IMG/VR virus record: IMGVR_UViG_2526164662_000049
Strand: one strand, 5' to 3'
From: a virus
Taxonomy: Duplodnaviria > Heunggongvirae > Uroviricota > Caudoviricetes
Length of the DNA: 44,479 nucleotides
Shown: one piece after another, positions 1,810 through 2,610 of the stretch
How the letters are laid out: every line of letters begins with the position of its first letter
Position numbering within the stretch: the stretch's first letter is position 1
The notes under the pieces: model-generated
Told to the model about the DNA's origin: nothing
Databases searched by the model: none
What the model saw: only the letters and a program-made list of their open reading frames with translations
Position numbers and translations under genes: made by a program

Positions 1810-2610
1810 ATGAATAAAAGAAAAACGCTTTTCAATATACAAGCACTAAGGTTTATTGCTGCAGCTATGGTGGTTTTGGCACATGCCGAACTTGGACAAT
1901 ATGGCATTGGGAATATCGAAATCCTTGCATCTCTGGGAGGATTTGGCGTTATTATATTTTTCATAATTAGTGGGTTTATTATACCTTACGTAGCATATGG
2001 TGGCTCTCAATCAGAAGGAGAATTCAAAATATCTGCAGGGAACTTTTTTATGCGAAGAGTAATAAGAATAATCCCGGTATATGCTTTAATTACCGCCCTT
2101 TGCGTTCTATCAGCCTTCATAGTAAAACATTATATATCTTCCCCAACTCCACCTATTGCTTATTGGTGGCCCGAAACAAAAATCAGTCTTCAATGGTATC
2201 TTGAGAGTATTACATTCACTCACTGGCATCGCGATGCAATTCTAAGTATAGGTTGGACATTACAACTTGAATTTTTGTTTTATACTTCTTTTGCATTTTT
2301 TATTGCTATCAAATTATCAAGGTTAGAGTATATAGAGATCTTATTTTTAACTATATCCATAGTAGCTAATATTTTAACTTATCAAAATAACAGCATCATA
2401 TTCGAAATTCTTCCGTTCATGAAAACACTGGCAAGACCAGAAATGGTCGTATTTGCTATGGGTATGTTTATGTATCGATTATACTTACTGGGCGCTATGT
2501 TAAAAAAAACAATTGCGCTTACAATATTAACTTTGTTTATTCCCACATTCTTATTATGTGAATACTTTAATATTACAACAAACATGGGGGGGAATGGCAT
2601 CGTCCTTTGA
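1810..2610 (+). CDS. membrane acyltransferase family 3 (O-antigen acetylase-like), N-terminal 266 aa; interrupted at poly-G
   Basis: multi-TM ORF, strongly AT-rich; acyltransferase_3-like N-terminus (RFIAAAMVVLAHA); ends 18 nt after a 7-G run. Confidence 0.75.
   Translation: MNKRKTLFNIQALRFIAAAMVVLAHAELGQYGIGNIEILASLGGFGVIIFFIISGFIIPYVAYGGSQSEGEFKISAGNFFMRRVIRIIPVYALITALCVLSAFIVKHYISSPTPPIAYWWPETKISLQWYLESITFTHWHRDAILSIGWTLQLEFLFYTSFAFFIAIKLSRLEYIEILFLTISIVANILTYQNNSIIFEILPFMKTLARPEMVVFAMGMFMYRLYLLGAMLKKTIALTILTLFIPTFLLCEYFNITTNMGGNGIVL

Follow-up and report, generated by a model that had tools for sequence, protein, structure and literature searches.

A membrane acyltransferase gene carried by a prophage is interrupted in the window, by which we mean the whole stretch of 44,479 nucleotides that was analysed, by the state of a single homopolymer. 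At positions 1810-2900 (plus strand) lies a frameshifted allele of a 1092-nt gene for a 363-residue protein, in which a run of seven G occupies the place of the eight found in intact alleles. We assign a probability of roughly 0.6 to the reading that this is an OFF allele generated by slippage at a hot spot of low rate. The evidence comes from the frames and composition of the gene itself, from near-identical intact genes, from a census of tract lengths in public contigs, and from the prophage module in which the gene resides.

The frameshifted gene and its tract

The window consists of E. coli chromosomal DNA and a prophage that has inserted beside pphA. Within the prophage the gene is covered by two adjacent open reading frames. 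ORF1 (1810-2610, plus strand, frame 1) encodes 266 residues, among them TM helices 1-7 and the motifs R14-X10-H25 and R83-X-X-R86. ORF2 (2607-2900, frame 3, 97 residues) is listed from a TTG at 2607, in a frame that is open from 2592 onward; the C-terminal coding part accordingly reads from 2592 to 2900 (plus strand) and specifies TM helices 8-10, an invariant SLEG, the block GDASYSIYLxH and E352. The break falls at a G run of exactly seven bases (2586-2592, plus strand; sequence context AACATGGGGGGGAATGG, also ACAACAAACATGGGGGGGAATGGCATCG), which covers Gly260-Gly261 and the opening base of the Glu262 codon, where TM helix 8 has its N-cap, and ORF1 ends with five out-of-frame codons followed by TGA. 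A preliminary description of this DNA had noted the two frames and the seven-G run that splits them, and had predicted that one extra G would fuse them into an enzyme of normal size, about 360 residues. Both points hold: with one G added the tract reads ATG GGG GGG GAA TGG CAT..., its first four codons giving M-G-G-E, and the product has 363 residues, matching relatives that are intact at 1092 nt.

The G+C content of the gene is 34%, compared with 45-52% in the flanking prophage and chromosome, and its portrayal as AT-rich acyltransferase-3 (AT3) cargo of a prophage was correct. Runs of seven G are not unusual in the window as a whole, where five occur on the two strands and 4.45 are expected. 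A run of eight is mildly unexpected, since an analytic estimate at the gene's own composition gives about 0.02-0.03 per gene. Codon usage at the site is unremarkable, GGG being no rare glycine codon in this gene (6/24 Gly codons).

Enzyme family and predicted fold

The gene belongs to the AT3 (PF01757) family of membrane acyltransferases. The repaired protein matches the Pfam profile Acyl_transf_3 over residues 9-342 (E = 1.9e-25; 90.1 bits, cut-off 31). ORF1 alone still scores 60.3 bits over profile positions 3-233, and ORF2 alone, over positions 248-319, reaches 27.5 bits and falls under the cut-off of 31. The sole phage-family match is PHROG 3333, 'O-acetyltransferase' (E = 5e-82). Two motifs are described as essential to AT3 proteins (PMC9558356): TM helix 1 bears R/K-X10-H, and the first of the cytoplasmic loops bears RXXR. 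They are present here as R14-X10-H25 and R83-V-I-R86, and both are invariant in alignments of 17 and of 93 homologues.

An AlphaFold2 model of the G8 protein, built with 93 sequences, has a pLDDT of 95.8 and a pTM of 0.93. Ten long membrane helices can be seen in it, and the loop between helices 3 and 4 is re-entrant and bears short helices at 109-129, in agreement with the published AT3 model of ten TM helices and a re-entrant loop between TM3 and TM4 (PMC9833829). Much of what is conserved lies beyond the frameshift: in the alignment of 17 homologues, 14 of the 47 invariant columns fall 3' of the tract, and the G7 product is devoid of TM helices 8-10, of the GDASYSIYLxH block and of Glu352. 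A glutamate near the C-terminus, Glu334, is functionally important in OafB (PMC9833829), and Glu352 is probably its counterpart, judged by its position near the C-terminus and not by alignment.

Searches for closer relatives of known function or structure returned little. NCBIfam holds no family or equivalog for the protein, a sequence search of the PDB gave no match, and Foldseek found for the model only non-significant transporter matches in the PDB (TM about 0.2) and hence no relative of solved structure; in BFVD it matched one viral protein of 637 residues. There are no close DNA relatives among 50,697 phage genomes, and tblastn of the intact protein against the 50,697 phage records (E <= 1e-3) gave no enterobacterial phage and a single match, in a Psychrobacillus phage, at 26% identity. 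A literature search found no experimental work on this protein cluster. The resemblance to serotype-converting phage Oac that had been proposed stands for the AT3 family, the size and the prophage setting, and fails for a specific sequence relationship, as judged by tblastn.

Intact relatives and recurrent changes of the tract

Among 5,426 complete E. coli genomes the gene is present in only six. All six have G8 and an intact 1092-nt gene annotated 'acyltransferase family protein', to which the gene of the window is 99.5-99.8% identical, and the relatives in IMG/VR likewise carry G8 and an intact gene (4/4 contigs). Every one of these ten relatives, read as DNA, thus has G8 in an uninterrupted reading frame of 1092 nt. 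Set against the commonest intact allele (C7/C3), positions 1750-2950 of the window show two differences only, the missing G and T2836C; the latter, a C for T at 2836 (plus strand), changes Leu339 to Pro in the repaired frame. Apart from the tract and Leu339Pro, the gene and its upstream region are the same as in alleles annotated as intact. The Pro339 protein with G8 exists as RefSeq entry WP_089656302.1 and is found on four contigs, and the IMG/VR contig L030 combines G8 with 2836C. Because Pro339 also occurs with G8, the substitution is by these comparisons a polymorphism of functional-looking alleles and not decay after inactivation. The tract is the only disruptive difference.

The census of tract lengths was an exact look-up, in public contigs, of the products predicted for each length. 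The intact G8 product of 363 residues is present on at least 329 contigs (251 + 40 + 23 + 7 + 4 + 4, the 23 being from Citrobacter), the G7 product of 266 residues (WP_001434144.1) on nine, the G9 product of 283 residues on four and the G6 product of 282 residues on one; predicted products of G5, G10 and G11 were absent from the public contigs under exact look-up. G8 consequently makes up about 96% of alleles and the other lengths about 4%, figures in which exact protein matching undercounts variants on other haplotypes. The G7 set was chosen by its identical N-terminal protein, the tract lengths of the G8-Pro339, G9 and G6 alleles rest on exact matches of predicted products, and some of the 14 variant contigs are automated Logan assemblies, where homopolymer miscalls are possible. 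GCA_019587455.1, GCA_018020095.1, ERR11813169 and SRR30896290 are among the further assemblies that carry G7, G9 or G6. Four other protein haplotypes, together on 74 contigs, gave no tract variants.

At the DNA level, the nine G7 contigs represent at least six SNP haplotypes in at least five chromosomal contexts, namely pphA, a Tor-type (molybdopterin reductase) locus, a SIR2 gene, a biotin-gene site and a GIY-YIG gene, and three of the G7 haplotypes are found with G8 as well. For the tract this means three changes as a minimum, six or more being the likelier number. The other ~1200 positions carry a tree-like handful of SNPs, and elsewhere in the 1.2 kb no site shows more than one or two changes. 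Changes of -1 are commonest, followed by +1 and then -2. Because G7 recurs on at least six haplotypes and in five contexts, with three haplotypes shared with G8, the tract behaves as a genuine slippage hot spot, at which -1, +1 and -2 changes have arisen independently in several lineages. Among related strains the tract is variable (G6, G7, G8 and G9) and comes with no additional inactivating mutations, which is the opposite of a tract fixed at seven in a gene that has gone on to decay, so that the preliminary description is not contradicted on this point.

At the site of the tract, homologues at 86-88% identity read ATGGGAGGTGA(A/G) or G6: the gene of Citrobacter meridianamericanus (88% nucleotide identity) has ATG GGA GGT GAA and no tract, and homologues from Logan (86% protein identity) have GGA GGT or GGG GGT. 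Further away, a homologue at 65% identity has GGG GGA and one at 60% has GGC GGT. Since these homologues encode Gly-Gly without the tract, G8 is by this comparison derived and lineage-specific, produced by two synonymous changes, both to G, and is not conserved. Scans for the tract with its flanks found none in JGI metagenome contigs and, on a first pass, none in species-representative genomes; a looser pattern returned one Citrobacter homologue, without the tract.

An exchangeable module of acyltransferase and fibre tip

The neighbourhood of the gene differs from that of related prophages in a defined block. Sister prophages at the same pphA site begin this region with the fibre gene and a tail fibre assembly gene (tfa); next come a second tfa, which is inverted and accompanied by an alternative fibre tip, and the DNA invertase gene pinE in intact form, and they possess a 20-nt inverted crossover pair. 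The homology of the window to such a prophage ends at 1614, within the 3' end of pinE, and begins again at 4503. What is left of pinE is a frameshifted remnant at 1398-1614 (minus strand), comprising the 3' ~217 nt (the last ~72 codons) and only the C-terminal HTH part; this follows from the alignment with the sister prophage L007, in which positions 501-2115 correspond to window positions 1-1614 and pinE occupies 1898-2452. In relatives the remnant is annotated as a frameshifted, incomplete HTH pseudogene.

The acyltransferase gene, tfa and the C-terminal two-thirds of the fibre gene occupy the interval. The exchangeable module, as delimited by homology break-points against L007, L017 and L001-L013, extends over 1615-4573: it comprises the acyltransferase gene, the tail fibre assembly (chaperone) gene tfa (3129-3716, minus strand; annotated in relatives, Pfam Caudo_TAP), which is convergent with it, and the C-terminal ~285 codons of the tail fibre gene (3716-4864, minus strand), whose N-terminal ~97 codons belong to the prophage backbone. 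The stretch from 1326/1373 to 4573 recurs at 99.2-99.4% identity in other prophage backbones at other chromosomal sites. Conversely, strain 8178 has at the same site a prophage that is otherwise 99.6% identical, with a different acyltransferase, tfa and fibre tip in the slot. These comparisons indicate that acyltransferase, tfa and fibre tip form a module that moves between backbones and has replaced an invertible fibre cassette.

The relation to the Din-family invertible segments (gin/G of Mu, cin/C of P1 and pin/P of e14) is accordingly one of position. The acyltransferase takes the place and the orientation of the lost alternative tip/chaperone cassette beside pinE, but the switch is dead here: only the pinE remnant persists, and no crossover site like that of L007 is left, the sister-prophage crossover sequence having no match in the window at up to three mismatches. 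A 22-nt inverted repeat at 1849-1870 and 4675-4696 (91% complementary) was considered as a surviving crossover pair of the invertase and rejected. Both of its arms encode F-I-A-A-A, in one case the conserved TM1 motif of the AT3 protein and in the other a piece of the fibre's backbone portion; the true crossover site, known from the sister prophage, differs in sequence and is missing from the window; and in other backbones the repeat does not belong to the module.

Because the acyltransferase shares the moving module with fibre tip and tfa, the enzyme is inherited together with the receptor-binding module, an arrangement typical of phages that modify their own receptor by lysogenic conversion, Sf6 Oac being the classic case; judged from context, it would fit a receptor-modifying function of that kind. 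The module would then unite receptor-binding and receptor-modifying functions that are inherited together and that displace an invertible fibre cassette. More distant homologues show a comparable association, as those at 60-65% identity adjoin tailspike genes, in the order int-AT3-tailspike beside yfdC and in one case with a GDSL esterase domain in the tailspike; the yfdC neighbourhood in E. coli carries a tRNA-Arg gene.

Slippage, artefact or switch

The events that would account for the allele are few. Replication slippage would have removed one G from a G8 tract, translation of the G7 allele would stop after 266 residues, and the product, deprived of TM helices 8-10, GDASYSIYLxH and Glu352, should be inactive. 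The allele is one +1 slip away from the intact gene, so that reversion would be possible. The enzyme may be seen as a prophage 'moron', a stand-alone AT3 protein of ten helices whose most probable activity is O-acetylation of a polysaccharide on the lysogen's surface. Its substrate is likely to be the O-antigen or another glycan recognised by the accompanying tail fibre tip, and acetylation of this glycan could bring about lysogenic conversion or superinfection exclusion. Mismatch repair is proficient in E. coli, and although G runs probably slip somewhat faster than A runs, their rate would still be orders of magnitude below that of classical phase variation. For a -1 frameshift in an (A)8 reporter in E. 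coli, values of 5.4e-8 per generation in the wild type and 8.1e-6 in mutS have been reported (PMC3306285), an estimate that is here borrowed for a tract of G8. Together, the population pattern and the expected rate would be those of sporadic inactivation at low frequency with occasional reversion, and not of an evolved high-frequency contingency switch.

A more trivial explanation is that the strain in truth has G8 and an intact gene, and that G7 is a homopolymer miscall in a draft record. The window is identical to part of the draft WGS contig AIGU01000042.1 (GCA_000250095.2), a G8 run is the type of site at which base callers and assemblers err, all six finished genomes have G8, and the window is the only G7 contig on the Pro339 haplotype, which occurs with G8 on four contigs. 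Against a miscall, comparison of 25 kb with the finished prophage of strain 8178, at 99.6% identity, shows no indels, three A7 runs included, and therefore the assembly is not generally indel-prone; moreover, G7 was obtained independently in other strains, for which several assemblies from NCBI, ENA and Logan report it, and the order -1 > +1 > -2 is that of biological slippage. The preliminary description had allowed for a sequencing error, and its caution retains some force for this one record on account of the Pro339 haplotype, while the absence of indels speaks against it; on balance we think an artefact unlikely. It is far less probable, and in our view hardly to be expected, that the G7 allele is still expressed, be it by slippage of RNA polymerase, by +1/-2 ribosomal frameshifting, or by assembly of the two ORFs as a split enzyme. 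Homopolymer-dependent transcriptional slippage is known in bacteria, and the stop of ORF1 overlaps the TTG of the ORF2 frame (cTTGA, 2607-2610); yet efficient slippage is known for A/T runs of at least nine bases, and G:C hybrids slip poorly. Furthermore, TTG 2607 is not preceded at a suitable spacing by a Shine-Dalgarno sequence, the G run ending 14 nt upstream, the break falls at the start of TM8 in a compact fold of ten helices (AlphaFold2 model), and a single intact ORF is the rule in all other strains.

Of greater biological consequence is the proposal, put forward in the preliminary description, that the gene is phase-variable. G8 would then be a contingency locus at which the acetylation of a surface glycan is turned ON and OFF often enough to matter biologically, so that lysogen populations would hedge between evasion of phages or immunity and the cost of the modification. 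The tract does toggle the frame, OFF alleles are free of secondary lesions, G6, G7, G8 and G9 all occur naturally, and G7 and G8 are found on the same haplotypes. The tract came from an interrupted GGAGGT by two synonymous changes, both to G, and eight G are mildly unexpected in a gene of 34% G+C; in addition, AT3 O-acetyltransferases whose phase variation is driven by repeats are known from Haemophilus (oafA) and Neisseria (pglI), and poly-G switching from another enterobacterium (Klebsiella rmpA). Nonetheless, some 96% of alleles have G8 and the lengths extend only from -2 to +1 around this mode, 74 contigs of four other protein haplotypes are without variants, and the homologues at 86-88% identity have no tract. 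Eight nucleotides are at or below the usual length cut-offs for phase-variable tracts; a recent Klebsiella study places tracts of 8 nt below accepted cut-offs and used one that this tract does not reach. Finally, the (A)8 frameshift rate of ~5e-8 in wild-type E. coli (PMC3306285) is far under classical rates of phase variation; a contingency locus would be expected to switch reversibly within a clone at roughly 1e-5 or more per generation. The gene thus shares with contingency loci a frame-switching intragenic repeat without other lesion and an independent polymorphism of tract length among strains; frequent OFF states, a broad distribution of lengths, a repeat of threshold length and its conservation across homologues are not seen. 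What stands of the original claim is the frame-switching tract and its natural polymorphism, and what does not is a switch in the usual sense, which we regard as quite improbable given the dominance of G8, the unconserved tract and the low expected rate.

A stronger form, in which G8 has been selected in a host with proficient mismatch repair so that the prophage, by slipped-strand mispairing, switches acetylation of its own receptor glycan ON and OFF among lysogens, and in which the gene travels as one module with the matching fibre tip, seems to us more doubtful still. If it were true, the locus would achieve through a repeat what the gtr/oafB switches of Salmonella achieve under Dam/OxyR control. 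A tract that switched often enough to be useful would be a rare example in E. coli of repeat-mediated phase variation of a prophage-encoded surface modification, and would bear on phage susceptibility, on serotyping and on O-antigen vaccine targets.

Comparison with known systems

Sporadic inactivation at a slippage hot spot, the reading that we prefer, is a kind of event already known, being a homopolymer frameshift in a surface-modification gene; here it is found in an uncharacterised prophage AT3 subfamily. The nearest parallels in mechanism are kpsC of E. coli K96 (A7/A6), for which a reversible and rare A7 frameshift has been described (bioRxiv 10.1101/2025.09.19.677278), and rmpA of Klebsiella (G10). 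Both are enterobacterial surface-polysaccharide genes subject to a -1/+1 change that is reversible in principle, and both show this same change in spontaneous mutants as well as in natural isolates. Switching has been shown experimentally in these two cases, whereas the gene described here is known from sequence alone; the tract of rmpA, moreover, is modally G10 and conserved across lineages, in contrast to the lineage-specific G8.

A second group of parallels concerns the enzyme. Haemophilus influenzae oafA, with its tetranucleotide repeats, and Neisseria meningitidis pglI are likewise AT3 O-acetyltransferases of surface glycans whose frame is toggled by a simple intragenic repeat. Their organisms, unlike the present host, have many contingency loci, high rates, broad ranges of tract length and frequent OFF states, whereas here 96% of alleles share one length, the tract, at eight bases, is short and unconserved, and the host has efficient mismatch repair. 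Oac of Sf6 and OacB, OacC and OacD of Shigella flexneri phages and prophages are stand-alone AT3 proteins of about 330-360 residues with R/K-X10-H and RXXR, as is the protein described here. The Sf6 Oac type also shares its character as AT-rich prophage cargo beside a gene for a receptor-binding protein, and the 60% homologues of our gene are found in the Sf6-like order int-AT3-tailspike beside yfdC, which in E. coli is the tRNA-Arg site. Similarity in sequence to Oac and OacB-D is at the level of the family, short of a specific relationship, and the host phage has a baseplate and fibre module of the contractile-tail type, not a P22-like tailspike.

The Salmonella OafB/GtrC and gtr operons resemble the present case as prophage-associated modifications of the O-antigen with population heterogeneity and altered phage susceptibility. 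They differ from it in that their control is epigenetic (Dam/OxyR) and located in the promoter, and in that OafB is an AT3-SGNH fusion, whereas the gene described here has no SGNH domain and is affected by a coding frameshift. Control of the Dam/OxyR type was also considered for the present gene, and seems unlikely, as the 200 nt that precede the start codon contain a single GATC.

The comparison with intact alleles also has a bearing on annotation. The 266-aa 'acyltransferase family protein' entries under WP_001434144.1 are frameshift products of the 363-aa enzyme, and the G8 hot spot needs to be checked before the gene is called present or functional in a genome.

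Acyltransferase and Tail Fibre Genes

Comparison of the window with Escherichia coli strain 8178 shows that the acyltransferase gene, the tail fibre assembly gene (tfa) and the fibre tip behave as a single exchangeable module, which spans 1615-4573 in the window and 3407-6001 in the strain 8178 locus (L017). In strain 8178 this prophage likewise occupies the pphA site, with 99.6% identity to the window over 25 kb, and its corresponding slot is filled by a different 341-aa acyltransferase (WP_000204789.1), a different tfa and a different fibre tip. Of the invertase gene pinE, which is intact in the sister prophages at pphA, the window retains only the last ~72 codons (1398-1614, minus strand). 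The sister prophages also possess a second tfa/fibre-tip cassette in inverted orientation, together with a pair of 20-nt crossover sites; neither these elements nor an intact pinE are left in the window.

An inverted repeat of 22 nt (91% complementary) has one arm at the acyltransferase gene's 5' end (1849-1870) and the other in the N-terminal portion of the tail fibre gene (4675-4696). Both arms encode F-I-A-A-A with identical codons, and recombination between them would keep the frame on both sides. As a candidate recombination site the repeat was rejected: it does not correspond to a crossover site of the Din type, nor does it belong to the module in other backbones, and for these reasons we judge it to be a coincidence, though a match of this length would not readily arise by chance.

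A different arrangement surrounds a 60% identical acyltransferase homologue (L023-L026, about 3001-6704), where a prophage integrase adjoining yfdC is followed by the acyltransferase and then by a tailspike. The latter combines Tail_spike_N and a GDSL/SGNH lipase-esterase domain in one protein; the acetyltransferase therefore adjoins a tailspike that is probably deacetylating and receptor-destroying.

Gene Copies and Other Length-Variable Sites

Two copies of the acyltransferase gene occur in a single source genome, IMG/VR UViG 2526164662, on the separate viral contigs 000035 (L029) and 000017 (L030). Each displays several additional 1-nt indels relative to every other copy, by which the source assembly looks to be of low quality.

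Besides the poly-G tract, the acyltransferase gene contains an A8 run (2502-2509, codons L-K-K-T), a potential second slippage site that showed no variant among the 19 sequences compared. The longest homopolymer of the window is a G9 run (35259-35267), located in the intergenic stretch between an ORF on the minus strand (34794-35216) and one on the plus strand (35555-35974). This part of the prophage resembles an early or immunity region, and the run could influence a promoter or constitute another slippage-prone site. Just 3' of the acyltransferase gene, the C-rich run ctaccccccttaaa (2915-2920) is another small length-variable site: one Logan contig (L015) lacks 1 nt there, and others show substitutions.
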